Positions 2,527 through 43,766 of a stretch of 64,000 bases of DNA are shown here, one piece after another. How positions within the stretch are numbered: position 1 is the stretch's first letter; every line of letters begins with the position of its first letter. The notes under the pieces were generated by a model, which saw nothing but the letters and a program-made list of their open reading frames with translations, searched no databases and was not told the DNA's origin. The DNA is from an uncultured Erysipelotrichaceae bacterium (GTDB lineage Bacteria; Bacillota_I; Bacilli_A; RF39; UBA660): positions 31,598 to 95,597 of the forward strand of contig CACXGO010000029.1 of NCBI GenBank assembly GCA_902767245.1, given 5' to 3'. The translations under genes were made by a program, and so were the position numbers.

Positions 2527-4164
2527 TTATTTATTACTTTCTTCAAAAAAATTAATTCTTTTTATGATTCTTTCTTTACCTAAATTTTTTAGAATTTCAT
2601 ATAAATCTGGTGTCATTGTTAAACTTGTTACAGCTACTCTAATTGCTTCACAAATGTCTCCAATTGAACCAACGTATTTTTCTGGTTCTTGTTTATAAGC
2701 TTTTGTTTCAGCGGCATAACCATATTTTGGTGCAAGTTCTTTTATTTTATTAAACCATTCTTCTTTTGAGTCAGATTCATTATAATAATTATTTACATAA
2801 TCTTTTAAAAGTTCAATATTATATTTTTTTTCAAGATTAAATTTAGCTTCTTTAAAATATAGCTCATCAAACATATACCAAGTGAATTTTCTAACATCTT
2901 CATATGCTGAAATATCTCTTCTTGGGCGTGGTATTTCTCTTTCAATATTTAAAACATTAATCATATATTCTTTGTATTTTTTCAATAATTCATGAAATTC
3001 TAAATCGTATTTTTCTGTATATTCTAATACACCTTCATATAATTTGGAAGCTTTAAGTGCACTAAAATATACTTTAGAAATACTTATAAGTTTTTGAATA
3101 TCAAACAAAGTTCCACCAATTGGGCACTTATCAAATTCAAATTCAAAATCATTTATTCCTTTATCAGGATTTTGCAAATACCACGATTCAAAAGTTGAAT
3201 TATTTATAGTTGCAAGATAAAGATCAATAACTTCGGTTGGAATTCCCTTTTGATGATAGTAACTTACTGCAGCCCATGGATCTTTACGTTTTGATATTTT
3301 TCTAACAGTATTTCCTTCTTTTACTGTCAAAGGTGAAATATGGGCATATGCTGGCATTTCAAAACCCAAAACTTTAAACAATTGTTCATGAACATTCCAA
3401 GAAGAAACCCATTCATCACCACGAATTACATTAGTTGTATGCATCAAATGGTCATCAACTGCATGAGCAAAATGATATGTTGGTAAATTGTCAGATTTTA
3501 AAATAACAATGTCCATATCATTTTCAGGCATTTCAATATTACCTTTTATTAAATCATGTAAAACTACTTTATTATTAAAATTGCCTGGGGATTTAAGACG
3601 AATTATGTATTTTTCACCATTTTTAACTTTTTCAATTGCTTCTTCCATAGTTAATGAACGACATTTTGCCCATGTACCATAGTAACCAATTCTTGCTTTT
3701 TCAAGTTCCTGAATGTTTCTTGTTTCTTCTAATTCTTCAGGTGTACAAAAACATGGATATGCTTTATCTTCCTCTATTAATTTTCGAACATAAGCGCGAT
3801 AAATGTCACCTCTTTCACTTTGAACATAAGGGCCATAATTTCCTCCAAAAGAAGGTCCTTCATTAAAGTTGATACCCAAATTTTTAAAGTCGTTAACAAT
3901 TCCTTCAATTCCATTTTCAACTTCACGCTTTTGATCAGTATCTTCAATACGTAACATTGCAATTCCATTAGTTTGTCTTGCCATAACTAAATCTACAAAT
4001 GAAGCATATAAACTCCCCATATGAACAAAGCCTGTTGGACTTGGGGCAAATCTAGTTACCATTTCTCCTACTTTTAAATCTCTTTTTGGATATTTTTCTT
4101 CATAATAATTAACATCATGCTCTACATTTGGTACAAGTAATTCACTATATTCTTTTCTTGTCAT
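2527..4164 (-). CDS. gltX: Glutamyl-tRNA synthetase
   Basis: RFAPSPTGFVHMG HIGH-region, KISKRK KMSKS-region, and the CFCTPEELE motif typical of bacterial GluRS. Confidence 0.9.
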   Translation of the reverse strand: MTRKEYSELLVPNVEHDVNYYEEKYPKRDLKVGEMVTRFAPSPTGFVHMGSLYASFVDLVMARQTNGIAMLRIEDTDQKREVENGIEGIVNDFKNLGINFNEGPSFGGNYGPYVQSERGDIYRAYVRKLIEEDKAYPCFCTPEELEETRNIQELEKARIGYYGTWAKCRSLTMEEAIEKVKNGEKYIIRLKSPGNFNNKVVLHDLIKGNIEMPENDMDIVILKSDNLPTYHFAHAVDDHLMHTTNVIRGDEWVSSWNVHEQLFKVLGFEMPAYAHISPLTVKEGNTVRKISKRKDPWAAVSYYHQKGIPTEVIDLYLATINNSTFESWYLQNPDKGINDFEFEFDKCPIGGTLFDIQKLISISKVYFSALKASKLYEGVLEYTEKYDLEFHELLKKYKEYMINVLNIEREIPRPRRDISAYEDVRKFTWYMFDELYFKEAKFNLEKKYNIELLKDYVNNYYNESDSKEEWFNKIKELAPKYGYAAETKAYKQEPEKYVGSIGDICEAIRVAVTSLTMTPDLYEILKNLGKERIIKRINFFEESNK

Positions 4165-4165
4165 A

Positions 4166-4335
4166 AAATCATTCCTTTCTAAAATAAAAAAACTCTATCC
4201 TGTTTAAGGACGAGTTTTCCCGTGGTACCACCTTATTTTATAGTATTGCTACTACCTTAATATCGTTAACGCCGATAAACAATAAGCTCTAAAGTTTCTT
4301 CAAAATGACTATTTATTAATTTCCATCAAACATTA
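4166..4335 (-). promoter_or_regulatory. T-box riboswitch leader of gltX, with terminator/antiterminator
   Basis: Reverse strand contains AAGGTGGTACCACGGG (T-box consensus AGGGTGGNACCGCG; its UGGU is complementary to the ACCA end of the adjacent tRNA-Glu). A hairpin CTCGTCCTTAAACAGGATAGAG plus U-tract follows immediately before the gltX RBS. Confidence 0.55.
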
Positions 4336-4379
4336 ACTTTCTATAAAATAGTTTAATTTTTACTCTTCTTTTTCACTGC

Positions 4380-4823
4380 TTATAAATTTTCTAAATTTTT
4401 CTTTATAATTGAGTTTACTAAACTCATATCTGCTTTTCCTTTTACTAAAGGTGCAATTTCTCTCATTATCTTGCCAATATCACTAGGTCCAGTTGGATTT
4501 ACCTTTGCAAAAACTTCTTTAACAAGTTTTTCAATTTCGGTTTCTTCCATCATTTTTGGCATATATACATTTAATACTTCAATTTCCTTATTATTTTGTT
4601 CTACTAAATCAGTTCTGCCTGCTTTTTCAAATTCAACATTTGCTTCTTTTCTTGTTTTAATTTGTTTAGACAAAATAGAAACTAATTCAGCATCTTCTAA
4701 ACTTCTTCCTTTTGCTATTTCATCCATTTGAATAGCGGCTTTAACCATTCTAATTACGGCCAACTTTGTCTTATCTTGACTTTTCATTGCCGCTTTTAAA
4801 TCTTCCATTAATCTTTCTTTCAT
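4380..4823 (-). CDS. yqeY: GatB/YqeY domain protein
   Basis: 147 aa, typical YqeY-like sequence and the usual position upstream of rpsU. Confidence 0.8.
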   Translation of the reverse strand: MKERLMEDLKAAMKSQDKTKLAVIRMVKAAIQMDEIAKGRSLEDAELVSILSKQIKTRKEANVEFEKAGRTDLVEQNNKEIEVLNVYMPKMMEETEIEKLVKEVFAKVNPTGPSDIGKIMREIAPLVKGKADMSLVNSIIKKNLENL

Positions 4824-9876: not shown

Positions 9877-10416
9877 CTATAAAGTTTTTCTAAATATTTT
9901 TATATATTTATCTCCATATTTTTTTTCTTTTATTAATTCATAATTGCATAAAGGAATTTCTTCTTCATATTCTGCAATTAATAGACCATTTTTATTTAAA
10001 ATATCTAAATTTTCAATCTCTTTAATTGCTTTATTTAATATTTTTTCATGATACGGGGGATCAAGAAAAATAATATCAACATTTTTAAATGTTTTTAAAG
10101 CATTTAAATAATCACTATTAATGAATAGAGATTCTTCTTCAACTTTTATTTCATTGCATGCTTTTTTTATCTCATCTATACATTTTTTGTTCTTATCAAC
10201 AAATATTGCTTTTTTAGCTCCATTACTTAAGGCTTCAAGTCCTAAAGAACCTGTTCCAGCAAATAAGTCTAATACTATGCTATCCTTTAAATAAGGATTT
10301 ATTGTTGCAAATAAAGATTCTCTAACCCTATCCATTGTTGGTCTAGTACCTTCAATATTAAAACCTTTTATAATTCTTCCTTTATATTTACCACTTATTA
10401 TTTTCAAAATTATCAC
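9877..10416 (-). CDS. rsmD: 16S rRNA (guanine966-N2)-methyltransferase RsmD (YlbH)
   Basis: LDLFAGTGSLGLEAL SAM-binding motif and the DPPY motif. Confidence 0.85.
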   Translation of the reverse strand: MIILKIISGKYKGRIIKGFNIEGTRPTMDRVRESLFATINPYLKDSIVLDLFAGTGSLGLEALSNGAKKAIFVDKNKKCIDEIKKACNEIKVEEESLFINSDYLNALKTFKNVDIIFLDPPYHEKILNKAIKEIENLDILNKNGLLIAEYEEEIPLCNYELIKEKKYGDKYIKIFRKTL

Positions 10417-10637
10417 CCATTTATTGTTGCAAGTATTGTTTGTAATGTGTCAATTAAGCTCAAGGCTTTTTCAATACGATCTTGTGGATAAAGTTTATAC
10501 TCTTTTTTTACTTCTGCTTCAAATTCATTAAAATATTTAAAATCACGATTCAATTTTTTATACCAATAAGAATGGGTATGCAAATATTCTAAATACTTAG
10601 GATTACTTCTTATTTTTTCTTGAACTAATCTAATCAT
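10413..10637 (-). CDS. ylbE: YlbE-like small protein
   Basis: Similarity to Bacillus YlbE (basic/aromatic core ...HSYWYKKLNRDF...). Start is probably the internal MIRLVQEK rather than the track ORF start; it overlaps the ylbD stop by a few nt. Confidence 0.4.
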   Translation of the reverse strand: MIRLVQEKIRSNPKYLEYLHTHSYWYKKLNRDFKYFNEFEAEVKKEYKLYPQDRIEKALSLIDTLQTILATING

Positions 10638-10968
10638 CGAATGACTTATAAATTGGCCTTGGTTTATATTCGCTTGTCTCTTCTTTTTTGCCACCCATAT
10701 CTTGTAAGACACCAATAACTCGTTGAATACTATTTACGCCATTTTGAACACTATCTAAATCAATATTCTTGAAAAAATCCAAAAGACTTGTAGAAGTAGC
10801 AGCTCCGACCGTTGCTACTTCTAAATAATCTTTCCAAGCATCTTTAGAGTCTCCATAAATATCATAGATTTCATAAAACTTCTGCCAAGTCATATCACCA
10901 TTACGGACAAAATTAATCAATCGTGGATTTTTACGCACAAAATCTTTAAACTCATCTTTTTTAGACAT
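10630..10968 (-). CDS. ylbD: YlbD-like putative spore coat protein
   Basis: MSKKDEFKDFVRKNPRLINFVRNGDMTWQKFYEIYDIYGDSKDAWKDYL... resembles Bacillus YlbD. The ylbD-ylbE-rsmD(ylbH) synteny is conserved. Confidence 0.45.
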   Translation of the reverse strand: MSKKDEFKDFVRKNPRLINFVRNGDMTWQKFYEIYDIYGDSKDAWKDYLEVATVGAATSTSLLDFFKNIDLDSVQNGVNSIQRVIGVLQDMGGKKEETSEYKPRPIYKSFDD

Positions 10969-16374: not shown

Positions 16375-16725
16375 CTAACTTTTTGGTTTAAATATTAGAC
16401 TTAAGAAAAAGGAGAAAACAATTGCTGCGGTTATCCCAGAACAAGTAAGGTCAAACATCCCCATAAATAGTCCCATAATCCCCTCTTCTTTTGCTCTTAA
16501 TAAAGCTGCATGACATAATGAATGACCAAAACTAGTTATTGGAACACTTGCACCAGCTCCTGCATAAATTAGAATTTTATCATAAATAGAAAAAAATTCT
16601 AATAGTGCTCCAACAACTACAAATAAACTAGTTACGTGCCCTGGAGTTAACTTTGTATTATCTAAAATTAATTGTCCAATTAAGCAAACTAAACCACAAA
16701 ACAAGAATGCATAAAAATACACCAT
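16375..16725 (-). CDS. spoVAEB: Stage V sporulation protein AEB
   Basis: 116 aa membrane protein downstream of spoVAD; SpoVAC/SpoVAEB family. Confidence 0.7.
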   Translation of the reverse strand: MVYFYAFLFCGLVCLIGQLILDNTKLTPGHVTSLFVVVGALLEFFSIYDKILIYAGAGASVPITSFGHSLCHAALLRAKEEGIMGLFMGMFDLTCSGITAAIVFSFFLSLIFKPKS

Positions 16726-17708
16726 TATATCGCCTCCAAACTTATAGCGTGAGCAATCGCTGGAATTGTTTCATGTTGATTAACAGTTGTTGTTGAAAGT
16801 AATGCTCCTGTTGCAACAATTAAAACTTTTTTTAAATTCTTTTTTTTCATTTCTTCTAATATATAAGTATAAGTTACAAGTGGTGCGCAAGCTGGACCAC
16901 TACCACCAGAATAAACACTTTGAGTTTTAATATTATAAATCATTGTCCCACAATCATTATAATTTTTTAAATTAATTTTATATTCCTTTTTCATTAGTTC
17001 TTTTAATATTCTTTTACCACATTCACCTAAATCACCTGATAAAACCAAATCATAATAACTTAAATCACGATTTAAAGCTTTTAGATGATTATATATTGTT
17101 TTTGCACAAGCTGGTGCCATTACTGCTCCCATTTGATATGCATCTTTAATTCCATAGTCAACAACTTCCCCTATTGTTGCGGCGTCAATTTTAATATCAG
17201 TTTTTTTGTTTGTAATAACGATTCCAGCTGAACCTGTTACCGTAAATGTTGCAGAATTAGGTTTAGGTCCACCATATTCAACGGGATAACGAAATTGTTT
17301 TTCAGCAGCATTATTATGTGAAGTAACATTAACCAAAACATTATTAACTATTTTTTTATCAACTAATGACGATGCAAGTAAAATCCCTTCAGTGCTAGTT
17401 GCACAAGCATTATAAATACCTAAAAATGGTATATTTACTTTACTTGCCGCAAATGAAGAAGCTGTAATTTGATTAAGTAAATCTCCTCCAAATAATAAAT
17501 CTACTTTATTTCTCTCTACTAAATTATTGATTGTTTCAAAAGCCATTTTACTTTCAGCTTGTTCCCAAGTTTTACTACCACAATAACCATCTTCATAGTA
17601 TTTATCAAAATAATGCTTTAATGGCCCTTCTTTTTCTAGCTTGCCCACAATAACATCAGTATCTTTTACATAAGCATTTTCAAATTTAAGTGTCATATTA
17701 TCCTCCAA
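16725..17708 (-). CDS. spoVAD: Stage V sporulation protein AD
   Basis: 327 aa, thiolase-like fold, conserved SpoVAD N-terminus (...KLEKEGPLKHYFDKYY...). Confidence 0.85.
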   Translation of the reverse strand: MEDNMTLKFENAYVKDTDVIVGKLEKEGPLKHYFDKYYEDGYCGSKTWEQAESKMAFETINNLVERNKVDLLFGGDLLNQITASSFAASKVNIPFLGIYNACATSTEGILLASSLVDKKIVNNVLVNVTSHNNAAEKQFRYPVEYGGPKPNSATFTVTGSAGIVITNKKTDIKIDAATIGEVVDYGIKDAYQMGAVMAPACAKTIYNHLKALNRDLSYYDLVLSGDLGECGKRILKELMKKEYKINLKNYNDCGTMIYNIKTQSVYSGGSGPACAPLVTYTYILEEMKKKNLKKVLIVATGALLSTTTVNQHETIPAIAHAISLEAI

Positions 17709-18138
17709 AAATTATATAATTAAGTAGTCCAAAAAAGAAAGCACTAACTACACCATAAACAATTACTGTTCCGGCAAGTTTAAACATATTAGCTCCAATA
17801 CCAGTGACTAGTCCCTCTTTTTTATATTCTAATGTTGCACTCATCATTGAATGAGCAAAACCAGCAATTGGAATTATAAGACCAGCCCTTGCAAAATGAA
17901 CCATTTTATCAAAAAATCCTAAACCAGTAAGTAAACAGCCAAGGAAAATTAAGGTTACAATTGCAAAAGTAGTTGCTTGAGTAACTGTGATTTCAAATAA
18001 ATAACTATATAAATCGGTCAATAGCTGGGCCAAAACACCCATTAAACCTCCAATAAAAAATGCAACAAAACTGTTTCTTAATCTATTTTCTTTGGGCAAA
18101 TTTTTTTTAACTAAAGTTTTATATTCTTGTTTAATCAT
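17698..18138 (-). CDS. spoVAC: Stage V sporulation protein AC
   Basis: 146 aa four-TM protein immediately after the sigma gene, as in clostridial sigF-spoVAC/D/E arrangements. Confidence 0.75.
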   Translation of the reverse strand: MIKQEYKTLVKKNLPKENRLRNSFVAFFIGGLMGVLAQLLTDLYSYLFEITVTQATTFAIVTLIFLGCLLTGLGFFDKMVHFARAGLIIPIAGFAHSMMSATLEYKKEGLVTGIGANMFKLAGTVIVYGVVSAFFFGLLNYIIFGG

Positions 18139-18194
18139 ATATTTCCTCCGTTTTTATTATGTATTTAAGATAAATTTATATACTAAAAAACAGT

Positions 18195-18830
18195 TTAAGC
18201 GCTTAAACTGTTTCTTAGTTTTACTAATATTTTTTGTTCTTGACGCGAAATGCCAGTCTGATTAGTATTAAAGTAATGAGCTATTTCCGTCTGCGTCCTA
18301 TCTGAATAATAGCGCAGCTCGATTAATTTCTTTTCATCAGCATTTAGTTTAGCAATTGATTCTCTTAACATTATGACATTATCAACATTTTCCTCTTTAG
18401 AAGGTATAACTTCATATAGTGAAAATGTTTCATCATCATTTAATGAGTCATCTAAACTCTTAATCGGATTTAATGAATTAATAGCTTCATTAATTGAATT
18501 CTCATCAATTTCTAAAAATTCAGCTATTTCCTTTTTAGATGGTTCGCGCATTAATTTTTGAGACAATAAAATAATTGCTTTATTTATTTTATAATTTAAT
18601 AAACTTATTTCGCGACTTACTTTTATACTCTTATCTTCACGAATATATTTTCTTATCTCTCCCAATATATAAGTATATGCATATGAAGAAAATTTAACAT
18701 TTAAATCACTTTTATAATTTTTATAAGCTTTTATAAGTCCAATACAACCTACTTGAAATAAATCTTCCTTGCTATGGAAATTAGGGAAATAACTGATTAT
18801 TGAATAAATAAGTTTTTGATTTTTTTTTAT
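18195..18830 (-). CDS. sigF: Sporulation sigma factor of the SigF/SigG/SigB family; 5' end uncertain (no in-frame ATG/GTG/TTG upstream of the conserved region 2; open frame extends to 18863)
   Basis: Hand translation upstream of the track ORF gives ...LIKKNQKLIYSIISYFPNFHSKEDLFQVGCIGLIKAYKNYKSDLNVKFSSYAYTYILGEIRKYIREDKSIKVSREIS... This matches SigF/G regions 2.1-2.4 (DLFQIGCIGLLK...VKFSTYAVPMIIGEIQRFIRDDGTVKVSRS). Region 4 follows (LIELRYYSDRTQTEIAHYFNTNQTGISRQEQKIL). Position is after spoIIAA and before spoVAC. Confidence 0.65.
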   Translation of the reverse strand: MKKNQKLIYSIISYFPNFHSKEDLFQVGCIGLIKAYKNYKSDLNVKFSSYAYTYILGEIRKYIREDKSIKVSREISLLNYKINKAIILLSQKLMREPSKKEIAEFLEIDENSINEAINSLNPIKSLDDSLNDDETFSLYEVIPSKEENVDNVIMLRESIAKLNADEKKLIELRYYSDRTQTEIAHYFNTNQTGISRQEQKILVKLRNSLSA

Positions 18831-18838
18831 TAATTCAC

Positions 18839-19168
18839 TCAGCTCTTCGTTAATATTGTATATTCATCTTCTCTTTCTTTTATATGTTTAAGTAAAAACT
18901 TAAATTTTTTTCTTAAAAATTTTGGTATTTCACATAAAGAAATATCGCTTTTTTTATTTAGCTTTAAATATGTCTTATAAAAAGCTAAAAGGCCATATTT
19001 ATCAATAGTATTTAACTTTGATACATTAAATACTACATTAGAAATGCCATTTTCTAATACTAAAGGATCAATTTTTTCATCAAGTAGTTTGCTTGTTTTT
19101 TTTATAACATCACCTTTTAATCTTATAAAAAGTATTCCTTTTTTAAATTTAAAATCATAATCAAGCAA
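18839..19168 (-). CDS. spoIIAA: Anti-sigma-factor antagonist-like STAS protein (SpoIIAA-like), lacking the phosphorylatable serine
   Basis: Aligns with SpoIIAA (LFIRLKGDV... / VVFNVSKLNTIDKYGLLAFYK vs [22 protein letters not shown]). The DSSG phospho-site is replaced by DKYG. Confidence 0.55.
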   Translation of the reverse strand: MLDYDFKFKKGILFIRLKGDVIKKTSKLLDEKIDPLVLENGISNVVFNVSKLNTIDKYGLLAFYKTYLKLNKKSDISLCEIPKFLRKKFKFLLKHIKEREDEYTILTKS

Positions 19169-19235
19169 ATATTTATCACCTCACTTATAATGTAACACTT
19201 GTTTATTAATTTTTCTTTAAAATCGACATATAAAG

Positions 19236-20567
19236 CTATTTTTTTAATTCGACATTATCTTTAATACTTTTTATGATGCAAAATATTAAAATCATTACCC
19301 CCATAGTTATTAAAATCACAGGTAATATTGGTTGCTTTTCAATTGATTTTTCAACCTTTTTTTTACTGATTATTTCGTCTTTGCTTTTAATATTGCTTTC
19401 TAATCGCTCGATTATTTCATCTTTATTTAGAATAACATCTTTTATTTCTTCATCTTTTTGCTTGAGTTTTCTTTCCAAATCATCAATATACTCTTTATTA
19501 GTTTTTACTTGGACATCTTTTTCAATTGTTTTTCCTGCAAAAATATATTTGACTTTATAAGTCCCATTCTTTGATATATCAATATTAGAAGCTACTTCAA
19601 ATGGTAAAGATGTTTTTATATAATCCTTTAAATCATAATTTTCATTATTAATAACAATTTTATCTTTTATAAAAGCTTGCTCTAAATAGGAATACTTTTT
19701 TTCGGTTATAAAATCATTAGTATCTTTAATATAACCATTTACTTCTTCTTCATAAGTTGGATAATAATCTTTATACATATATTCATACAAAAAATATTTA
19801 TCACGATAAGCGTACTCTTTATATTGTTCTTTTAATTTCATGTTAGGCGTTTCCTCATATTTTATTATTTCTTCTTCATATGCATTATATGGAGTAAAAC
19901 CATCAATCGTAATATATTTTAAGCTTAAATCACTAACATAATTATTCTCATATAAAATATCATTTTCATTGTCACCATAAATGGTTATTTTATAATTAAC
20001 TCCCTCCTTATTAAACATAACTTTAAATTTAAACTCTTCTGGATAGTAATAGTCATTCATTTCAATTGACATTTTATCTATTTTGACCGCTTTATTATAA
20101 CTTTCATCTTGAATATACATATATGCATTAGGTGAACAAGTTCGACAAAATGATGAAGTATTTACTGAAAATCCATTAATTTTTAATGAAAATTCTAAAA
20201 CCGTTTCTTCTTCATCAAAAACTTCAATTAAAAATTTTTTTATTTTCTTAAGCTTTTGATAGATATAAACATCTCTTTCTTTTATCTCACGATTTTTTTT
20301 CAACATTGGTTTATTTAGCGACCATTCACTATAATCAGAGTAATAAAAATCATCTTTTTTTTCAAAAAAGGTTGGATTTTCATCTTCAATAAAATATGCA
20401 CTTATTTTTGATTCCTTATAAAACCGGTATTTTTTTATTTCATCAACTTTTAAATTTAATTCTTCAATTGGCCTATACTCGATACCATAGTTTTTAGCAA
20501 TTACTTTAGTTACAAATATTAGTAAAATAATAATTAACATTTTAAATATTTTTTTTATTTTTATCAC
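19236..20567 (-). CDS. Hypothetical surface protein (N-terminal signal peptide, C-terminal coiled coil and TM anchor)
   Basis: 443 aa with a Tyr/Glu/Lys-rich repetitive middle and C-terminal ...KQPILPVILITMGVMILIFCIIKSIK. Confidence 0.35.
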   Translation of the reverse strand: MIKIKKIFKMLIIILLIFVTKVIAKNYGIEYRPIEELNLKVDEIKKYRFYKESKISAYFIEDENPTFFEKKDDFYYSDYSEWSLNKPMLKKNREIKERDVYIYQKLKKIKKFLIEVFDEEETVLEFSLKINGFSVNTSSFCRTCSPNAYMYIQDESYNKAVKIDKMSIEMNDYYYPEEFKFKVMFNKEGVNYKITIYGDNENDILYENNYVSDLSLKYITIDGFTPYNAYEEEIIKYEETPNMKLKEQYKEYAYRDKYFLYEYMYKDYYPTYEEEVNGYIKDTNDFITEKKYSYLEQAFIKDKIVINNENYDLKDYIKTSLPFEVASNIDISKNGTYKVKYIFAGKTIEKDVQVKTNKEYIDDLERKLKQKDEEIKDVILNKDEIIERLESNIKSKDEIISKKKVEKSIEKQPILPVILITMGVMILIFCIIKSIKDNVELKK

Positions 20568-20626: not shown

Positions 20627-22753
20627 TTAAATTTCTTTATCTTCTAGTTTAATAACAAGCTTTTCTTTATCTTTTAAAATCGCAAGTGGTTTAATATTTT
20701 GATTTATAACATAACCATATCCTTCAAATTCAACTTCAATGTTAGCTAAATTTGTAAATGTTTGAACATCTTTTTTAGACCATCCATAAAAATTTGGAAT
20801 CGTAATCTCATTTTTGTTTGTTATCAAAAAAATCTGATCATTATCTAAAACAGTTATTCCTTTTTCAGGATATTGATTTATTATATAATCACCATTCCCT
20901 ATTAAGACTACATTTAAGTCTTGAGATTCTAAATTTTCTTTTACTTTTATAGTATTTTCACCACGATAATCACCTAGAACAAAGCTACTTGATAAATTCA
21001 AAGATTTTTGATTATTAAAAGTATTTCTATAAGTTGCCATATCTTTCATTAAAGTTACAATTCCTGTTTGAAAAACTTCACGCTTCTGTTTTGGCTTCTT
21101 CATTGATGCAAACACTATTACATCAGGATTGTCCTTTGGAAACATCCCTGAAAATGAATAAATATAATCATATCCACTACCAGAATATTTTCCAGTAGAT
21201 GAATTATAAAATTGGGCTGTCCCTGTTTTTCCAATAACATCAAAGCCTTGAATTTTATACTTATATCCAGTTACTCCTGGTTTAGTCGAATTAACAACAT
21301 TCCACATCAATTGACGTAACTGTTTAACATTTTCTTTAGACGCAACATTTTCTACTTTTTCTATTTCACTTTTATAAATAACTTCACCAGTTTTAGAATT
21401 AACAATTTTATCTACAATTTGCGGTTTCAACATTGTCCCATCATTTGCGATGATAGTCAATGCTTGTAAATGCTGTATTGGTGTTGTTGTAATACCTTGC
21501 CCATAAGAAGCTGCAGCTGTTTCAACAGCATATTTAAAATTGATATTCCCTTTTAATTCACGTGGTAATTTTACTCCTGTTTTTTGGCCAAAACCAAAAG
21601 CAGTAAAACATTTCTTTAATTGATCACGTTTTAAAATTGTTTGCATCATTGTAGCAACAGCGACATTGCTTGAACGTTCAAGTCCTAAATCATAAGTAAT
21701 TGTCCCCCAACCAACTTTATTGTGATCATAAATAATGGCATCATCTATTTTGATTGAACCAGACTTGTAAGTAGCATTCCCATTATAAACTCCATTCTCC
21801 ATCGCACAAAGATATGTAAATACTTTCATAACTGATCCTGGTTCATAAGCAAAGGAAACTAAAGGATTTTCATAATTTGTAATATTTAATTTATTCGGAT
21901 CAAATGACGGAATTGAAGACGAGCCTAAAATGCGACCTGTCTTGGCTTCCATCACTGATATTGTAAGCCATTCAGGATCAGCAACTTTTTCAATATTATC
22001 AGCGACGGTTTCAACAAACCTTTGAATATTGGCATCGATTGTTAAATACATATCATCACCATCAATTGCTTCAATATTTTCTTCTGGAGTATCTGGTATT
22101 TTATAGCCATATCTATCTTGTTGTTGCATAATATAACCATCTTTACCATTTAACTCTTTATTATAAAGCGACTCTATTCCAAGCTCCCCAACAATTTCAT
22201 CATCATATTTTTTGGCATAGCCAATTATATATGAAGCAAAATCTCCGTTAGGATAGTATCTTTTAGTATTTTCAATAAAACCAATCCCTGGAAGTTCTAA
22301 AGCTTCAATTTCTTCTTTTTTAAGTTCTGTAATATCTCTTCCTCCGGGACCTAATTCAACTTGATAAAGATTTTTAGAAAGAAGTTCTAATATCCTTTCT
22401 TTAGTCATATTGATAACTGGAGCTAAAGCCTCTGCTGTTTTTACTTTGTCTACTACATGTAAAGGTTTCTTTGAATTTCCTGTTCTTGATGGTGATAAAT
22501 ATGCAATAACAGTATACGACGATACGGTTTGAGCAAGAATGCTTCCATCAGATGTATATACATTTCCCCTTAAAGCTTTGATAGTTGCTTTATATGTATT
22601 TCTATTTTTAGCAAACGCTTGCATATCTATTCCATAAACCGTTTTAAAAAGCGATATATAACAAAGTTGTAAAAATAAAATCACAATAAAAACAAGAAAT
22701 ATTTTAAAAATTCCTTGGGGTTTCTTCCATTTTTTAAAATTTCTTGTTTTCAC
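20627..22753 (-). CDS. pbpB: Penicillin-binding protein 2B / FtsI-type transpeptidase with C-terminal PASTA domains
   Basis: SVMK (SxxK), SSN and KTGTA motifs; N-terminal TM; the C-terminal ~130 aa are PASTA-like. Confidence 0.85.
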   Translation of the reverse strand: MKTRNFKKWKKPQGIFKIFLVFIVILFLQLCYISLFKTVYGIDMQAFAKNRNTYKATIKALRGNVYTSDGSILAQTVSSYTVIAYLSPSRTGNSKKPLHVVDKVKTAEALAPVINMTKERILELLSKNLYQVELGPGGRDITELKKEEIEALELPGIGFIENTKRYYPNGDFASYIIGYAKKYDDEIVGELGIESLYNKELNGKDGYIMQQQDRYGYKIPDTPEENIEAIDGDDMYLTIDANIQRFVETVADNIEKVADPEWLTISVMEAKTGRILGSSSIPSFDPNKLNITNYENPLVSFAYEPGSVMKVFTYLCAMENGVYNGNATYKSGSIKIDDAIIYDHNKVGWGTITYDLGLERSSNVAVATMMQTILKRDQLKKCFTAFGFGQKTGVKLPRELKGNINFKYAVETAAASYGQGITTTPIQHLQALTIIANDGTMLKPQIVDKIVNSKTGEVIYKSEIEKVENVASKENVKQLRQLMWNVVNSTKPGVTGYKYKIQGFDVIGKTGTAQFYNSSTGKYSGSGYDYIYSFSGMFPKDNPDVIVFASMKKPKQKREVFQTGIVTLMKDMATYRNTFNNQKSLNLSSSFVLGDYRGENTIKVKENLESQDLNVVLIGNGDYIINQYPEKGITVLDNDQIFLITNKNEITIPNFYGWSKKDVQTFTNLANIEVEFEGYGYVINQNIKPLAILKDKEKLVIKLEDKEI

Positions 22754-22765
22754 GGTTTCACATCC

Positions 22766-23056
22766 TTACTTATCTATAATTATAATATTTTCATAATTAT
22801 ATGACAAGCCCATTTCACTGACAACACCCTTAATATTATCATAAGCAGTTAATTCACTTATTTTCATATTTAAACTTTCATTTTTCTTTTCTTGAGTAGA
22901 TATTTGATAATTTAACTTTTCAATATTCATTTTTAAATTACCTAAACTAGCTGCTGAATAAATTTGAATAAACATCACTAAAAACAACATTATAACAATG
23001 CCGGTATATAAAAATTTTTCTCCTCTAGTAATTCTTCTTTTTCTTGATGTTGTCAT
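22766..23056 (-). CDS. ftsL: Cell division protein FtsL-like
   Basis: 96 aa bitopic protein (TM plus coiled coil) between rsmH and pbpB. Confidence 0.55.
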   Translation of the reverse strand: MTTSRKRRITRGEKFLYTGIVIMLFLVMFIQIYSAASLGNLKMNIEKLNYQISTQEKKNESLNMKISELTAYDNIKGVVSEMGLSYNYENIIIIDK

Positions 23057-23058
23057 AT

Positions 23059-23982
23059 TTATCTTCCTATTCTTTCTATAATGCGCAATTTTGCGCTTCG
23101 TGAGCGATTATTACTTAAAACTTCTTCTTTACTTGGCTCTATAATATCAATAAGCTTAAATTTTGGCTTAAATTCATCCGGTATTATTGGTAAAGATGCA
23201 AGTTCTTTTTTTACTGTGCTATTTTTTTTAAATATTTCTTTACATATTTTATCTTCAAGCGAATGAAATGTGATAACACAGATTCTACCATTAACATCAA
23301 TTAAATCTAGTGCATAATTTAATGATTTAGTAAACACATTTAATTCATCATTGACCTCTATCCTGATTGCTTGAAATACTTTTCTTGCCGGATGATGGTC
23401 TCTTTTATACTTTGCAGGAACGGAAGCCGAAATAAGCTCTGCTAGTTCAATAGTTGTTTCAATTTGTTTTTCTTTTCTTGCTTCAACTATTTTTTTGGCA
23501 ATATTTCTAGCATATTTTTCTTCTCCATATTTGAAAAATATTTCCACTAATTTTTCATATGAATAATTATTTACGACCTCAAAAGCGCTTAAACTATTTC
23601 TTTTATCCATACGCATATCAAGTCTTGCTTCATTATGAAAGCTAAACCCTCGACTTTCTTCATCAAGTTGGGGACTTGAAACACCTAAATCAAATAGAAT
23701 TCCATCCACATGATCAATATTTCTTTTTTTCATTTCATCTTTCATGTTGACAAAATTAGTATGAATAATTTCAAAATTTGATGAAATTTTAGAAAGTCTT
23801 TCATAACTACTCTCAATTGCTTCTTCATCTTGATCAAAAGCATATAAATAACCATTAGGAATTCTTTTTAAAATCTCACTACTATGCCCTGCATAACCTA
23901 AAGTTGCATCAATAATAACACTATCATCTTTTAAATTTAAAGCATTAATGCATTCGTTAAGTAAAACGCTTATATGTTTCAT
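23059..23982 (-). CDS. rsmH: 16S rRNA (cytosine1402-N4)-methyltransferase RsmH (MraW)
   Basis: Conserved MraW sequence throughout ([19 protein letters not shown]). Confidence 0.9.
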
Positions 23983-24407
23983 ACTTGACTTGTAAATAGA
24001 TGGTCAGCCATATCAGAGAAATTTTCCTCGTTTTCACTGATAAAGCCATCCCACATCTCCTTACTCCAAATTTCAATGCGATCATTAACACCAATGATTA
24101 CGCATTCCCTTTTTAAAGATGCATAGGTTACAAGCGGAATTGCTATATTGATTCTACCTTGTTTATCAAATTCACATTCAGAAGCACCTGATAAGAAAAA
24201 TCGCATAAAATTTCTAGCTTCTTTTGTATTTGGAAGTTCACGATATTTCTTAATGATATTTTCCCATTCGTTTAAAGGATAGACAAATAAACATTTATCA
24301 AGTCCTCTAGTTATAATGAATTTTTCACCAAGTTCATAACGAATCTTTGATGGAATTATTAAACGACCTTTTTCATCAATGTTATGATGAAATTCCCCCA
24401 TTAGCAC
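23979..24407 (-). CDS. mraZ: Transcriptional regulator MraZ
   Basis: [23 protein letters not shown]... duplicated MraZ domain. Confidence 0.9.
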
Positions 24408-30086: not shown

Positions 30087-30686
30087 CTATACTCCCATAT
30101 ATATTACAAATAAAACCATCATTATAACTGCAACAATATTACAAAGTGGTTCTCTAATTTTTGCTATTTTTGTTTTATTTAAAATATAATTACCTAGTTT
30201 ATATAAATAATAACCTAAAATACCACCAACCAAATTTAAAATTATATCGTCAACATCAAATACACGACCTATTCGATATTGAATGATTTCTACCGCTAAT
30301 GATACAAATAATGAAAAAACAATCACATATTTAACTTTTCTTAATTTTGTAAAATAAGATAAATAGAAACCATATGGTAAAAATAACATAATATTACCTA
30401 ACACATTACGAATAAACATTCTACTTCCAATTTCAAAACGAAATATTTCTTTAAATGGAATCAAATTAGCTGTTGACCAATCAACATCAGCAAATGTAAG
30501 TACATAAAAGAAACACATTAAATAAAATATAAATATTAAATTTAATATTTCTTTATATAAAACAATTTTTTTCTTTTTAGAAATAAAACTAAAAAATCGT
30601 ATTGAAAATAATATTGTAATTAAAATAAGCAAAGATGGCCATATACTACTGATTACCGCTTTTATTGTCTCCTTGTACATTGTCAA
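30087..30686 (-). CDS. VanZ-like family membrane protein
   Basis: Four TM helices with VanZ-like conserved residues (GNIMLFLPYG, RVFDVDDIILNLVGG). Confidence 0.55.
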   Translation of the reverse strand: MTMYKETIKAVISSIWPSLLILITILFSIRFFSFISKKKKIVLYKEILNLIFIFYLMCFFYVLTFADVDWSTANLIPFKEIFRFEIGSRMFIRNVLGNIMLFLPYGFYLSYFTKLRKVKYVIVFSLFVSLAVEIIQYRIGRVFDVDDIILNLVGGILGYYLYKLGNYILNKTKIAKIREPLCNIVAVIMMVLFVIYMGV

Positions 30687-31797
30687 CCTCTATTCTTTTT
30701 TCTTCTGAAATATCTTCATATGTTGTAATTAAGACTTCTACTATTATTTTACTATCTTTTACATCAACTTTCAATTGCTTTTCAGAAATTATTGTTTCAT
30801 CTTCTTTTAATTTCTTTTTAATTTTTTCTTTAGCTTTTGAAATTGCTCTGTTTATTCCCTCTTCAACTGTCAAAATATGGTCAACTAAATGCACTTCTTT
30901 TACATTATCATAAGATAAATAAAAAGGTAATAAATTATGTTTAAATATAATATTTTCTTTAATTTCATTATTTGGATATTTTTTATATAGTTCATAATTT
31001 TTATTAAAGAATTTAATTTTGAAGCCATTTTTACTATTTCCTTTAACTTCTTTGATTTTTTCATGCAATGATGCACTTACATTTATTTTATACCAAACAT
31101 TTGCATATATCTTACCACTTGCATGAATCATTTTTTTATCATTAATAATTCCTGTTATTAATGTATCACCTTTTTTTACATATGTTTCTTTTTCAGCAAC
31201 TATAATTCCATTACTTGCAATAATTTTTTTAACAAGACCATCAGTTTTCGCTACAATATCTACTGGCTCTTCATTTGATATTTTTTTATTTTCTATTCTT
31301 TCTTCAACTTTAACAATATACTTGACTCCAGATTCAATTATTTCAATCCATTCTAAATCATTTTTATTTTCATTTAAAATTTCTTTTTTTATGTTTTCTA
31401 GATTTTTTGGTTTTTTATTATATTTTTTTATCCCTTTTTCTTTTAAAATATTAGTTACTAGATTAGCAATGTTTTTATTATTTTCAATTAATTCTACTTC
31501 ATAAATATAATTTGTTATAACAATTAATAAACAAATATTAATAATAATTAAAACAAATAAATGAATATTTTTATTTAAAATTGCTTTAAATTCGTTTATT
31601 CCATATCTTTTTATAATTTCAATTTCATATATTCCTTTTAATTTTATTAATTTATCAAAATCTTGCTCATAAATTAAAATCTCTACTTCATTGTTATTTT
31701 TAATATTAATATTCAAACATGTAATTTTATTTCTTTCCAATTTAATCAAAAAATTTTTAACATTCTTACCAATTACTTTGATCAAGCATCGATTCAT
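30646..31797 (-). CDS. yqfD: Sporulation protein YqfD-like
   Basis: 383 aa with a central TM helix; position downstream of the yqfC-like gene and upstream of ybeY/era as in Bacillus. Confidence 0.55.
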   Translation of the reverse strand: MNRCLIKVIGKNVKNFLIKLERNKITCLNINIKNNNEVEILIYEQDFDKLIKLKGIYEIEIIKRYGINEFKAILNKNIHLFVLIIINICLLIVITNYIYEVELIENNKNIANLVTNILKEKGIKKYNKKPKNLENIKKEILNENKNDLEWIEIIESGVKYIVKVEERIENKKISNEEPVDIVAKTDGLVKKIIASNGIIVAEKETYVKKGDTLITGIINDKKMIHASGKIYANVWYKINVSASLHEKIKEVKGNSKNGFKIKFFNKNYELYKKYPNNEIKENIIFKHNLLPFYLSYDNVKEVHLVDHILTVEEGINRAISKAKEKIKKKLKEDETIISEKQLKVDVKDSKIIVEVLITTYEDISEEKRIEVDNVQGDNKSGNQ

Positions 31798-32039
31798 GAA
31801 TCCACCAACTTTAATTCATTTATTTCACCAATAATTAATAGCTCATTATTTAAAAGACGTTTCAATTTTAGATTTTTTCCCTTTATTTTTAATATATTGT
31901 TTGGTACTAAAACATCTATTTTTTCATCTTCTAAAATAATGATTTTTATATAATTAATTATATTTAAATATTTTTTAGTATACACAATTTTAAAATCTGA
32001 ATTATTTATATAATTTCTTAATTCTTGATACATACTCAT
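31794..32039 (-). CDS. yqfC: Sporulation protein YqfC-like
   Basis: 81 aa, overlaps the start of yqfD; conserved synteny. Confidence 0.45.
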   Translation of the reverse strand: MSMYQELRNYINNSDFKIVYTKKYLNIINYIKIIILEDEKIDVLVPNNILKIKGKNLKLKRLLNNELLIIGEINELKLVDS

Positions 32040-32108: not shown

Positions 32109-32339
32109 TTAATCAATTACTACTAAATCACCACCATATTTAACATCATATTCATCAAGAAGATCATAAATAGAATCTTTATTATCAATCATTTTTAAAT
32201 TAACAACAATATTATTGATATTATATTCGCTTATAAAATAATAAAGTTTCTTTTTAAATCTTTTTACATTATCTTTTGAAGCATTTCCACTTAATGTTAC
32301 ATATAATGCTTTCTTTCGATACTCTAAATAAATATTCAT
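32109..32339 (-). CDS. Small hypothetical protein (possible STAS-like fold)
   Basis: 76 aa ORF only; weak resemblance to anti-anti-sigma/STAS proteins. Confidence 0.3.
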   Translation of the reverse strand: MNIYLEYRKKALYVTLSGNASKDNVKRFKKKLYYFISEYNINNIVVNLKMIDNKDSIYDLLDEYDVKYGGDLVVID

Positions 32340-41700: not shown

Positions 41701-42777
41701 CTAGTTTTTTGATGCGATATTTAGAACAATTCCAATTGAAAGCATTGATACAAGTAAACTTGAACCACCATATGAAAGAAATGGAAGTGTTACTCCTGTA
41801 ACTGGAATTAAGCCAATAACTACAAGTAAATTTATCATAGCTTGAAATCCCATTTGAAAACCAATTCCAAATGCTAAATATTTCTTAAATAAATCGTTTG
41901 TTTCTAAAGCAATTTTTATTATCTGATAAATTATTAAAGCAAATAAAATAACAATTAAAGCTCCACCCAAAAATCCTAGTTCTTCACAAATAATAGCAAA
42001 AATAAAATCTGTTTGTGGTTCTGGCAAATAAAAGTGTTTTTGAATTGAATTACCTAATCCTTTACCAAATAATCCGCCTGGTCCAATTGCATAAAGTGAT
42101 TGAATTATTTGAAACCCACTTCCTAAAGGATCAGACCAAGGATTTAAAAATGCAACTATTCGTGCCATTCTATAAGGTGCAACTACAATTAAGCCAATTA
42201 CTCCAACAATTCCAATCAAACCAATTTTTACAAAAAATGAAAAATCAGCACCTGATGCAAACAAAAGCCCAACAATACTCATTACTAATACAACTCCACT
42301 CCCAAAATCAGGTTGTAACATGATTAAAAAAAATGATATAAGAACGATTGTTAAAATTGGGAAAATTGTTTTAAAAGTATATTTTATATTATCTTGATTA
42401 TTGGCTAAATACTTTGCAGTAAAAATGAGGAGTATAATTTTCATTATTTCACTTGGTTGCAAACTAAATAATCCAAAATTAAACCAACTTTGGCTTCCAT
42501 TTCTAACTGTTCCTAAACCTGGAATTAATACTAAAATTAATAAGGCAAATCCTAAAAAGAGTAATTTATTTGCTTTTTTATAGTACAAATTAACATCAAT
42601 TTTACTTATAAAAATCATTAAAAAAACTCCAATTATAAAAAATAAACCTTGGTTTTTTAAATATTTTAAAGAATCATTATATTTATATTCGGCCCATATA
42701 TAGGATGATGAATAAATCATTATAAGCCCAATTAAAATTAAAATTATTACTAACCAAAGTAATTTCTTTTTTCTCAT
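41701..42777 (-). CDS. ftsW: FtsW/RodA/SpoVE-family peptidoglycan glycosyltransferase
   Basis: Ten-TM SEDS protein, likely starting at MRKKKLLWL right after the mraY stop. Position after mraY resembles spoVE/ftsW. Confidence 0.8.
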   Translation of the reverse strand: MRKKKLLWLVIILILIGLIMIYSSSYIWAEYKYNDSLKYLKNQGLFFIIGVFLMIFISKIDVNLYYKKANKLLFLGFALLILVLIPGLGTVRNGSQSWFNFGLFSLQPSEIMKIILLIFTAKYLANNQDNIKYTFKTIFPILTIVLISFFLIMLQPDFGSGVVLVMSIVGLLFASGADFSFFVKIGLIGIVGVIGLIVVAPYRMARIVAFLNPWSDPLGSGFQIIQSLYAIGPGGLFGKGLGNSIQKHFYLPEPQTDFIFAIICEELGFLGGALIVILFALIIYQIIKIALETNDLFKKYLAFGIGFQMGFQAMINLLVVIGLIPVTGVTLPFLSYGGSSLLVSMLSIGIVLNIASKN

Positions 42778-43766
42778 AAGAAAACTCCAAAGGAAACAGC
42801 AATTAAAGATGCAATAATCGCAACTATCCAAAATAATCTCACAATATCTTCTTCTTTCCAACCACTTTTTTCAAAAGAATGATGAATTGGAGTCATTTTA
42901 AACAATCGTTTTTTTGTTCTTTTGTAATATACTCTTTGAATAAGACATGATAATGTTTCAATAACAAAAACAATCCCAACTAAAACAAGTAAAAGTTCAT
43001 GTCTTGTAACTATAGAAGTAGCACCTAAAGTTGCACCTAGTGCAAGAGAACCAGTATCGCCCATAAATATTTTAGCAGGATGTGAATTAAAATATAGGAA
43101 ACCTAATACTCCGCCAGCTAAAATAAAAAGAAATATACCAATTGTTTCATTTCCACTTAACCAACTAGTATAATTGGCTAAAATTCCAAATGTAATTAAA
43201 GCAATAAAAGAAAGTCCACCCGCAAGTCCATCTAACCCATCAGTTAAATTAACTGCATTACTACTTGCAACTAGAACAAACATAATAAAAAATCCATATA
43301 AAAATCCGATATTTATTTTCACATTTAATGTATGAATCCATATAAGTGGTTCATTTCCTGCAAGTAAGAAAAGAGCAAAAAAGATCACTGCAACTAAAAT
43401 TTGCAAAAGCAATTTTTGTTTTTCAGTTAATCCTTGATTATCATGCCTTTTAATAATTAAATAATCATCTAAAAAGCCAATAAATGCATAACCAACAAAA
43501 GTGATTAAAACAATTGCAAGGTTATAAGTAAAAGTAATTTTACCAAATAGAGACATAATAATTAATGTAATAATACTTGAAAGTATAAAAATAAGTCCAC
43601 CTAAAGTTGGAGTTCCCTTTTTTTCATTATGTCTTTCTTCTAAATAAATACTTAAAGTTTGCTTGGCATTAAGTTTTTTTAACTTTGGTATTAACAAAAA
43701 TCCAATTATTAATGCAAAAATAAAGCTGATTAACATACCTAAAAAACATTTAAGTAATGAAATCAT
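42774..43766 (-). CDS. mraY: Phospho-N-acetylmuramoyl-pentapeptide transferase
   Basis: Conserved MraY motifs (GTPTLGG, NAVNLTDGLDGLA, DTGSLALG). Confidence 0.9.
   Translation of the reverse strand: MISLLKCFLGMLISFIFALIIGFLLIPKLKKLNAKQTLSIYLEERHNEKKGTPTLGGLIFILSSIITLIIMSLFGKITFTYNLAIVLITFVGYAFIGFLDDYLIIKRHDNQGLTEKQKLLLQILVAVIFFALFLLAGNEPLIWIHTLNVKINIGFLYGFFIMFVLVASSNAVNLTDGLDGLAGGLSFIALITFGILANYTSWLSGNETIGIFLFILAGGVLGFLYFNSHPAKIFMGDTGSLALGATLGATSIVTRHELLLVLVGIVFVIETLSCLIQRVYYKRTKKRLFKMTPIHHSFEKSGWKEEDIVRLFWIVAIIASLIAVSFGVFL

Follow-up and report, generated by a model that had tools for sequence, protein, structure and literature searches.

An RF39-lineage spoIIA locus with adjoining STAS and short sigma-F-type genes and no spoIIAB

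INTRODUCTION

We describe the spoIIA-type locus found in a 64,000-nucleotide stretch of DNA (contig CACXGO010000029.1 of assembly GCA_902767245.1, hereafter the window) from an uncultured Erysipelotrichaceae bacterium of the RF39 lineage. In our preferred reading, to which we give a probability of roughly 0.6, spoIIA in this lineage is a two-gene module that comprises a SpoIIAA-descended STAS protein and a short sigma-F, from which spoIIAB has been deleted and in which the phospho-acceptor has been lost. Sigma-F would thereby have come off the SpoIIAB/SpoIIE switch, with the STAS protein kept for a phosphorylation-independent contact. Since both spoIIAB and the SpoIIAA phosphosite are lost, the control of sigma-F must presumably differ from that in all studied spore-formers.

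SpoIIAA, SpoIIAB and SpoIIE are regarded as belonging to the universal core of endospore formation, and the partner switch that they form is the textbook origin of cell-specific expression. The finding reported here contradicts this supposed universal: in a large and abundant lineage of the gut, selection maintains the sigma-F operon together with forespore-type promoters, spoVA, yqfC/D and, among relatives, a presumed pro-sigma-K, although the kinase and the phosphosite are gone. The loss of spoIIAB and spoIIE in RF39 is already on record as presence/absence data (PMC10868615). The operon anatomy, the loss of the phosphosite, the promoter and the ATT start appear to be undescribed, as we found no account of them in the open-access literature.

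RESULTS

Gene order at the locus

The window has a G+C content of 26%, and nearly every gene lies on its minus strand, as do all features of the locus described below. Reading of the open reading frames together with profile scans gave the order STAS gene (18839-19168), sigma open frame (18195-18863), spoVAC (17698-18138), spoVAD (16725-17708) and spoVAE (16375-16725), followed by a gene for an Amidase_6 protein. This confirms, between 16375 and 19168, the spoIIAA-sigF-spoVAC-spoVAD-spoVAE arrangement lacking spoIIAB that was claimed in a preliminary description of this DNA. The STAS gene encodes 109 amino acids from a TTG start, which is preceded by a ribosome-binding site (GAGGTGAT, 19175-19182). 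The sigma frame opens right behind a TGA codon, and the sigma-F-type gene itself, with regions 2, 3 and 4, is predicted to run for 219 amino acids from an ATT codon (18195-18854). As the stop codon of the STAS gene (TGA, 18839-18841) falls within the sigma frame, there is no room for a 145-residue protein to be encoded between the two, just as had been suggested. With the predicted ATT start lying upstream of that stop codon, the 3' end of the STAS gene and the 5' end of the sigma gene would overlap by 16 nucleotides (18839-18854). The three spoVA genes, which had been described as intact together with yqfC and yqfD, are indeed so, and all five pass their curated cut-offs (for spoVAC, 166 bits on TIGR02838; for spoVAD, 428 bits on NF006160; for spoVAE, 139 bits on TIGR02839).

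The STAS-sigma pair in related genomes

A protein search with the sigma factor returned 2966 matches at E <= 1e-20, defining a family of about 215-221 amino acids. Scanning one genome per GTDB species gave 557 loci, and the best 80 of these 557 were fetched for comparison. All of the fetched relatives are uncultured metagenome-assembled genomes (MAGs) named as 'Bacilli', 'Tenericutes' or 'Mycoplasmatota'; among them are Candidatus Faecisoma merdavium and Candidatus Coprovivens excrementavium, whose genera have been assigned to the order RF39 (PMC8035907).

The comparison with relatives, proposed earlier as a check, showed that the two-gene junction recurs: in 80 of 82 independent species-level MAG loci the STAS gene is the immediate upstream neighbour of the sigma gene, with a gap of -32 to +50 nucleotides. 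Because it is common to these loci, the junction is a trait of the lineage and not an artefact of assembly. Neighbourhood clustering found the STAS-sigma pair to be invariant, with spoVAC-AD-AE downstream in about half of the loci. Purifying selection acts on both genes: over 230 STAS pairs the median ratio of nonsynonymous to synonymous substitution rates (dN/dS, pairwise Nei-Gojobori) is 0.127, and over 195 sigma pairs it is 0.148; the window's clade gives 0.15-0.34 for STAS and 0.13-0.21 for sigma. The remaining conserved neighbours, considered as candidates for an anti-sigma factor, comprise sigK-like, PadR-like, ClpC-like and UvrA-like genes as well as one for a small protein with a coiled coil; not one of these is universal or anti-sigma-like.

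A second sigma gene, whose N-terminus is presumably of the pro-sigma-K type, lies one to three genes upstream of the STAS-sigma pair in at least 16 related loci. Examples are found in loci L002 (3054-3755, minus strand), L045 (1452-2156, plus strand) and L061 (4821-5576, plus strand), where the genes are intact and the extension reads ..FPDPLSKEDEE..HNLRLVAHIVKKY... The label is our own assumption, made by eye against B. subtilis SigK and not from a model score.

Absence of spoIIAB

To look for the missing kinase we used B. subtilis SpoIIAB and SpoIIAA sequences as probes; validation gave 216 bits for the first (TIGR01925) and 157 bits for the second (TIGR02886), both above cut-off. The DNA searched for SpoIIAB amounted to the 64 kb of the window and about 12 kb from each relative. 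A tblastn search, a check that had been recommended at the outset for the whole genome, gave no match to SpoIIAB in the window or in 84 related loci, while the SpoIIAA probe recovered the STAS gene in 28 of the same 84 loci, down to E = 6e-15. Searches with phmmer and hmmsearch for SpoIIAB and RsbW likewise gave nothing significant among six-frame open frames of at least 50 codons in 0.95 Mb (the window and about 88 loci). In a Pfam scan of the window's open reading frames of at least 90 amino acids and a few smaller ones, HtpG was the sole protein with an HATPase domain, and no PP2C/SpoIIE domain was found.

The loss of spoIIAB at this locus is therefore genuine and lineage-wide, as the adjoining of STAS and sigma in 80 of 82 species-level loci attests, and the proposal that the kinase gene is really absent and not hidden in an assembly gap holds. 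A collapsed assembly, named beforehand as the case that could overturn it, is ruled out by the same junction in independent assemblies and in about 80 species. In a 2024 gene-presence survey, high-quality RF39 genomes carried spoIIAB and spoIIE less often or lacked them altogether (PMC10868615). Turicibacter, a member of the Erysipelotrichia, carries both SpoIIAA and SpoIIAB (PMC13492147).

The STAS protein and its former phosphosite

The STAS protein scores 38.7 bits against Pfam STAS, and its best NCBIfam model is the SpoIIAA equivalog TIGR02886, at 32.9 bits and thus far below the cut-off of 114.75. Its AlphaFold2 (AF2) model, with a predicted local distance difference test score (pLDDT) of 94.9, has an intact fold that is closest to SpoIIAA. 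The best fold matches are the SpoIIAA chains 1THN_B and 1TH8_B, both taken from SpoIIAB complexes (template modelling (TM) score 0.84, 27% identity), and the UsfX-RsfB complex 8IH8 is also among the matches. When the profile of the STAS family was compared with the Protein Data Bank (PDB), SpoIIAA structures 1AUZ, 1TH8 and 1TID were recovered over the full length at E ~1e-12. The statement that this protein aligns well with SpoIIAA is hence correct for fold and profile and incorrect for the curated cut-off. Judged by the model, the window STAS protein is a single-domain SpoIIAA-type antagonist fold.

In the alignment with B. subtilis SpoIIAA, the former DSSG loop corresponds to D56-K57-Y58-G59 (18992-19003). 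The window motif is I-D-K-Y-G (codons 19003-18992) where SpoIIAA has D-S-S-G, which places Tyr58 at the position of the acceptor serine. Defining this position as the residue before the invariant glycine of D-S-S-G, we found lysine in 45 of 80 relatives, tyrosine in 20, asparagine in four, serine in four and threonine in two, with other residues in the rest; a residue other than serine or threonine is present in 74 of the 80, and serine or threonine is kept in six. The earlier view that this STAS protein cannot be the substrate of a serine kinase is in line with these data, both for the window and for most of its relatives. Within the window's close clade the acceptor position varies among Y, D, F, V, E, H and K, which is unlike the pattern expected of a phosphorylation site. 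The most conserved part of the family is the loop together with the helix that follows it, F-N-x-x-x-L-x-x-I-D-x-x-G-I-N-x-L-x-x-N-Y-E.

Close relatives of the window STAS often have aspartate or glutamate at the former acceptor position (N-D-G, H-D-G, S-D-G and D-E-G). In B. subtilis SpoIIAA, an acidic residue at this site would mimic the phosphorylated, inactive form.

Identity of the sigma factor

Pfam Sigma70_r2, Sigma70_r3 and Sigma70_r4 all score above their gathering thresholds in the sigma protein, with Sigma70_r2 beginning at residue 11 of the open frame. None of the curated models reaches its cut-off (TIGR02980, SigB/F/G, 176.8 against 234; TIGR02885, SigF, 173.6 against 321; SigG, 151), and SigF is the best equivalog, ahead of SigG. 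The best PDB match is the sigma-F of the SpoIIAB complex 1L0O (E 5e-54), with an alignment that starts at residue 31 of the chain, and the next match, chain H of 8X6G, is far behind. The protein does without the approximately 30 N-terminal residues of canonical sigma-F; the N-terminus of the family, 'MNEEL..LI..N..LIYSI..YF', lies directly at region 2. As the short N-terminus is a feature of the family, it is not the product of truncation or of a frameshift in a longer sigF. Its position after spoIIAA and before spoVA and its closest solved relative both identify the protein as a sigma-F orthologue.

An ATT start codon in the window's clade

The sigma frame of the window reads ATA TAC AAT ATT AAC GAA GAG, and that of relatives GGA GAG AAT ATG AAC GAA GAA. 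No ATG, GTG or TTG occurs in the frame before the TTG at 18665, and a start at this codon would delete region 2; the near-cognate candidates are ATA and ATT only. In more than 70 relatives an ATG (a GTG or TTG in a few) is found at the position aligned with the ATT. In the clade formed by the window and loci L005, L006 and L085-L088, ATT occupies this position in all seven members while the flanking codons vary, no ATG, GTG or TTG follows until about codon 67, and the STAS open reading frame runs past the ATT. Codon usage for isoleucine (ATT 60%) gives a chance of about 0.05 for six further ATTs, in a calculation that ignores shared ancestry. These observations corroborate the description of a sigma factor with regions 2-4, no region 1 and no canonical start codon, with relatives pointing to the ATT, and they exclude the frameshifted longer sigF that had been raised alongside it, as relatives have an ATG at the same aligned position and a length of 215-221 amino acids.

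The GGAG/GGTG ribosome-binding site of the relatives' sigma genes is missing in the window's clade. Owing to this, initiation at the sigma gene is probably weak and dependent on ribosomes that are translating STAS, and the 16-nucleotide overlap would couple the translation of the two genes. Genes of the infC type offer a parallel, in that ATT is conserved at a site occupied by ATG in orthologues, which implies that initiation is weak and sensitive to initiation factor 3. The sigma gene differs in that its ATT, at which initiation is predicted, lies inside the 3' end of an upstream open reading frame, which suggests coupling; and, unlike for infC, we know of no autoregulatory logic for this AUU-start gene. 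Other ways of starting the protein were also considered. ATA and CTG are rejected as start codons, as neither is conserved in the clade. A +1 or -1 frameshift from a small ATG open reading frame (MNIQY*) that overlaps the 5' end of sigma is rejected, as this frame is not conserved (MNLQY*, MK* and so on in other genomes). Fusion of STAS to sigma by frameshifting is rejected in view of the separate, non-overlapping genes of most relatives, where sigma has its own ribosome-binding site and ATG. No natural STAS-sigma fusion ('Rosetta stone') was present among the matches listed.

Public gene calls of this sigma are affected. Because ATT replaces ATG in the clade, such calls truncate the protein to 156 amino acids, as in the entry of the window organism itself (P0007), which starts at an internal TTG and is without region 2. 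Wrong calls comprise P0007, P0014-P0020, P0001 and P0008, either as the 156-residue fragment or, in the case of P0001 and P0008, as 241-244 residues with the upstream TGA read as tryptophan; translation of the P0008 locus under code 11 does not yield the query. Reading of TGA as tryptophan (genetic code 4) is ruled out, as TGA ends 15 of the 70 genes of the window and the anticodon of its tRNA-Trp is CCA. TGA is thus a genuine stop codon, and the long public calls are artefacts. Mis-annotation of this kind hides or distorts sigF in gene-presence surveys of such genomes.

Regulatory signals

Upstream of the STAS gene, the window carries a perfect Spo0A box (TGTCGAA, 19248-19254) that overlaps the last codons of the preceding gene, referred to here as gene X (V-E-L, in an end that reads N-V-E-L-K-K). 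Closer to the STAS gene, a 0A-like box matching six of seven positions (TGTCGAT, 19222-19228) is found at the position typical of the family, with its start 34 nucleotides upstream of where the -10 hexamer begins. The extended -10 element reads TGtTACATT (19189-19197; family consensus TGcTAAATT). A perfect TGTCGAA is present upstream of STAS in 68 of 80 loci, nearly always at one distance, and it occurs there 5.2 times per kb, compared with 0.06 times per kb elsewhere in the loci, an approximately 85-fold enrichment. An anchored alignment of 70 regions gave the consensus TCTAGTTTTGTCGAA-t.TGTATAA-N13-TGTGCTAAATTA-N7-GAGGTGAT-start, in which the 0A box abuts the -35 position of an extended -10 promoter and spacing is conserved to the single base. 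From this we infer a Spo0A-dependent promoter upstream of STAS.

At the other end of the operon, a predicted intrinsic terminator, consisting of a hairpin and a U-run (18182-18219; -18.2 kcal/mol, z = -6.8), overlaps the sigma stop codon, and similar palindromes lie 3' of sigma in relatives. A forespore promoter of the sigma-F/G type, GTATA-N17-CATAATA (18155-18183), precedes spoVAC, as judged by the B. subtilis consensus for such promoters. The same motif was found in 18 of the 34 loci with spoVAC downstream (the window and 17 of the 33 others), over a background of 0.057 per kb. Given the conserved box and -10 promoter, the terminator and the forespore-type spoVA promoter, the STAS-sigma pair looks like an early, Spo0A-controlled sporulation operon, in a lineage whose forespore promoter code looks conserved.

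DISCUSSION

How the two-gene module might work

If the two-gene reading is correct, Spo0A~P would switch the STAS-sigma operon on and the two proteins would be produced in a fixed ratio, with coupled initiation at AUU keeping sigma at a low level in the window's clade. The SpoIIAB/SpoIIE phosphorylation partner switch would no longer govern sigma-F; the STAS protein would instead be retained for a protein contact, independent of phosphorylation, by which the activity of sigma-F is set. The conserved loop and helix round the old phosphosite (I-D-x-K/Y-G-I-N-x-L-x-x-N-Y-E) could provide the surface for this contact. The most economical partner would be sigma-F itself or its RNA polymerase holoenzyme, which we favour on grounds of economy and of the obligatory linkage of the two genes. 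A stronger version, in which the SpoIIAA descendant regulates sigma-F directly and independently of phosphorylation, as an anti-sigma factor or as an escort, and a two-protein STAS-sigma module replaces the four-protein switch of SpoIIAA, SpoIIAB, SpoIIE and sigma-F, is speculative and in our estimate unlikely. Activation in the forespore would in that event proceed without kinase or phosphatase, for instance through instability of the STAS protein combined with a transient asymmetry of gene dosage.

Several considerations weigh against the two-gene reading. Both the restraint of sigma-F and its contact with STAS are deduced from sequence reasoning, and to our knowledge STAS domains do not bind sigma factors directly. 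The start of sigma at the ATT (18852-18854), giving 219 residues, is suggested by comparative evidence with modest support from codon usage. An anti-sigma factor that is unlinked, divergent or not a kinase may be encoded elsewhere in genomes of which 64 kb here and about 12 kb per relative were searched. At several positions that the family conserves, the window STAS protein differs from the consensus, and these departures, together with the elevated dN/dS range given above, suggest that its role may be relaxing in the window's clade. The survey's account of genes that are rarer or altogether missing does not state the loss as universal (PMC10868615). Moreover, RF39 is uncultured, and a machine-learning classifier assigned its MAGs a sporulation probability of 0% (PMC12536801).

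Alternative explanations

It is conceivable, if rather improbable, that an anti-sigma-F is encoded elsewhere, either as a GHKL protein that has diverged or is no kinase, after the manner of M. tuberculosis UsfX, or as a non-homologous inhibitor, and that STAS is still a classical antagonist placed under redox, ligand, abundance or proteolysis control. The loop and helix by which STAS touches SpoIIAB in solved complexes are strongly conserved (I55, D56, G59 and Y67), which is what would be seen in that case, as is the best superposition of the STAS model on SpoIIAA from those complexes; the searches reached only a small portion of each genome, and non-phosphorylatable antagonists do exist, M. 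tuberculosis RsfA being one. Yet there is no linked anti-sigma gene in any of about 80 species, though partner-switch genes are normally clustered, and the variable acceptor residue of the window's clade includes the acidic residues that in SpoIIAA mimic the inactive phospho-form. The survey of high-quality RF39 genomes bears on both sides of the question, as absences based on KEGG Orthology (KO) can overlook divergent homologues, while both spoIIAB and spoIIE were found to be reduced or absent (PMC10868615).

The preliminary description left a choice between a degenerating module and a different control of the forespore sigma factor. The data favour the second, as an inference, and do not bear out the first, given intact genes in about 80 species, the low dN/dS values, the conserved Spo0A-box promoter and the canonical forespore-type promoter of spoVA. 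We accordingly regard it as very improbable that the module is a relic of sporulation on its way to being lost, in which control of sigma-F has collapsed, STAS is a passenger and the ATT marks a gene nearing silence. The reduced, host-associated genomes of RF39, the greater divergence of STAS in the window's clade than in the rest of the family and the loss there of the sigma ATG and of a good ribosome-binding site would fit such a relic, as would the non-sporulating score of RF39 MAGs (PMC12536801). Against this stand a dN/dS of about 0.13-0.15 for two open reading frames that remain intact, promoter spacing conserved to the single base, retention of the ATT in seven of seven clade members amid varying neighbour codons, the intact spoVA, yqfC/D and ylbD genes above curated cut-offs, and the intact pro-sigma-K-like genes near the locus in relatives. 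An artefact of assembly or annotation, with spoIIAB collapsed out or a longer sigF frameshifted, has a negligible chance of being the explanation: the inconsistent public calls of sigma (156 against 241-244 amino acids) speak for it, but an independent assembly of this organism (L001) shows the same junction, as do about 80 further species, relatives have an ATG start for sigma at the matching site of the alignment, and gene ends and the tRNA-Trp anticodon alike show TGA to be a real stop codon.

Comparison with known systems

The module resembles the spoIIA operon of Bacillus and Clostridium (spoIIAA-spoIIAB-sigF, followed in clostridia by spoVAC-AD-AE) in its Spo0A-box promoter, its STAS protein of SpoIIAA fold, its sigma factor nearest to 1L0O and its downstream spoVA genes behind a promoter of the sigma-F/G type. 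It differs in having no spoIIAB, in the replacement of the acceptor serine (by tyrosine here and by lysine in most relatives), in the abutting or overlapping of the STAS and sigma genes, and in a sigma factor about 30 N-terminal residues shorter, with an ATT start in the window's clade. The promoter also looks to be of the extended -10 sigma-A type, whereas that of B. subtilis spoIIA is of the sigma-H type. In M. tuberculosis, where sigma-F is controlled by UsfX and RsfA-RsfB, the STAS antagonist is not subject to the kinase activity of the anti-sigma factor, so that a sigma-F-type sigma and a STAS antagonist free of such control are features shared with the present system; UsfX, however, is an anti-sigma factor of the GHKL fold, and none was found in the loci searched here. 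Sigma-SsdA and SipA of Actinoplanes missouriensis are likewise wired in an unusual manner, with a STAS (antagonist) domain and the sigma factor joined physically (PMC10733313). There, in an unrelated lineage, STAS is fused to sigma and binds the anti-sigma domain of SipA; in the present system STAS and sigma are encoded as two proteins, and we know of no anti-sigma domain. By analogy, the Actinoplanes fusion shows that STAS-sigma wiring can be rearranged.

The locus bears on a disagreement in the literature, in which RF39 has been predicted to be a spore-former with altered regulation (PMC10868615) and has been scored as non-sporulating (PMC12536801). The latter, a classifier study, lists nine genes that every predicted spore-former has, spoIIAB among them, and the non-sporulating score of RF39 is partly due to the service of spoIIAB there as a universal marker (PMC12536801). 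If RF39 does sporulate with simpler control of sigma-F, it would offer a natural minimal system for compartment-specific activation; alternatively, it may use a sporulation-derived cascade for something else.

ADDITIONAL OBSERVATIONS

The protein encoded by gene X (19236-20567, minus strand) combines a signal peptide with a beta-rich ectodomain, a coiled coil and a membrane anchor at its C-terminus. Neither Pfam nor NCBIfam gave a match, and a representative library contained 495 homologues; in 51 of 81 loci the gene is found upstream of STAS. The ectodomain is rich in tyrosine and beta structure (AF2 pLDDT 79), and a fold search against the PDB gave no significant match, the weak top entries being elongated class II fusion proteins at a TM score of about 0.1. 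As gene X lies upstream of the Spo0A-box promoter we do not count it in the switch, and it is probably outside the regulatory module. A role for gene X as a replacement anti-sigma factor or SpoIIE is unlikely, as the protein is almost wholly extracytoplasmic, with about 10 cytoplasmic residues and a signal peptide; its place upstream of the promoter, its absence from about one third of loci and the lack of a fold match disfavour it further.

The division and cell-wall cluster of the window is split. Its mraZ, rsmH, ftsL/divIC-like and class B penicillin-binding protein genes (20627-24407, minus strand) run into gene X, STAS, sigma and spoVA and not into mur/mraY genes, while MraY-like (42774-43766) and FtsW/SpoVE-like (41701-42861) genes are found on the minus strand about 20 kb away from the cluster.

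Just upstream of yqfC (31794-32039, YabP family) and yqfD (30646-31797), an open reading frame of 76 amino acids (32109-32339, minus strand) may encode a truncated STAS paralogue. An hhalign comparison with the STAS family profile matched residues 5-55 of this frame to positions 6-56, in the N-terminal half (probability 81%, E 1.3e-5); Pfam gave no STAS match. Beside rsmD, two small, mutually overlapping open reading frames (10413-10968, minus strand) encode sporulation-associated proteins, one YlbD-like (putative coat protein, 62 bits) and one YlbE-like (weak, 23 bits). Lastly, a T-box leader (4203-4385, minus strand), which at 103 bits exceeds the gathering score, sits between yqeY (4380-4823) and the downstream gene for a class I tRNA synthetase of the Glu/Gln type (2527-4164).

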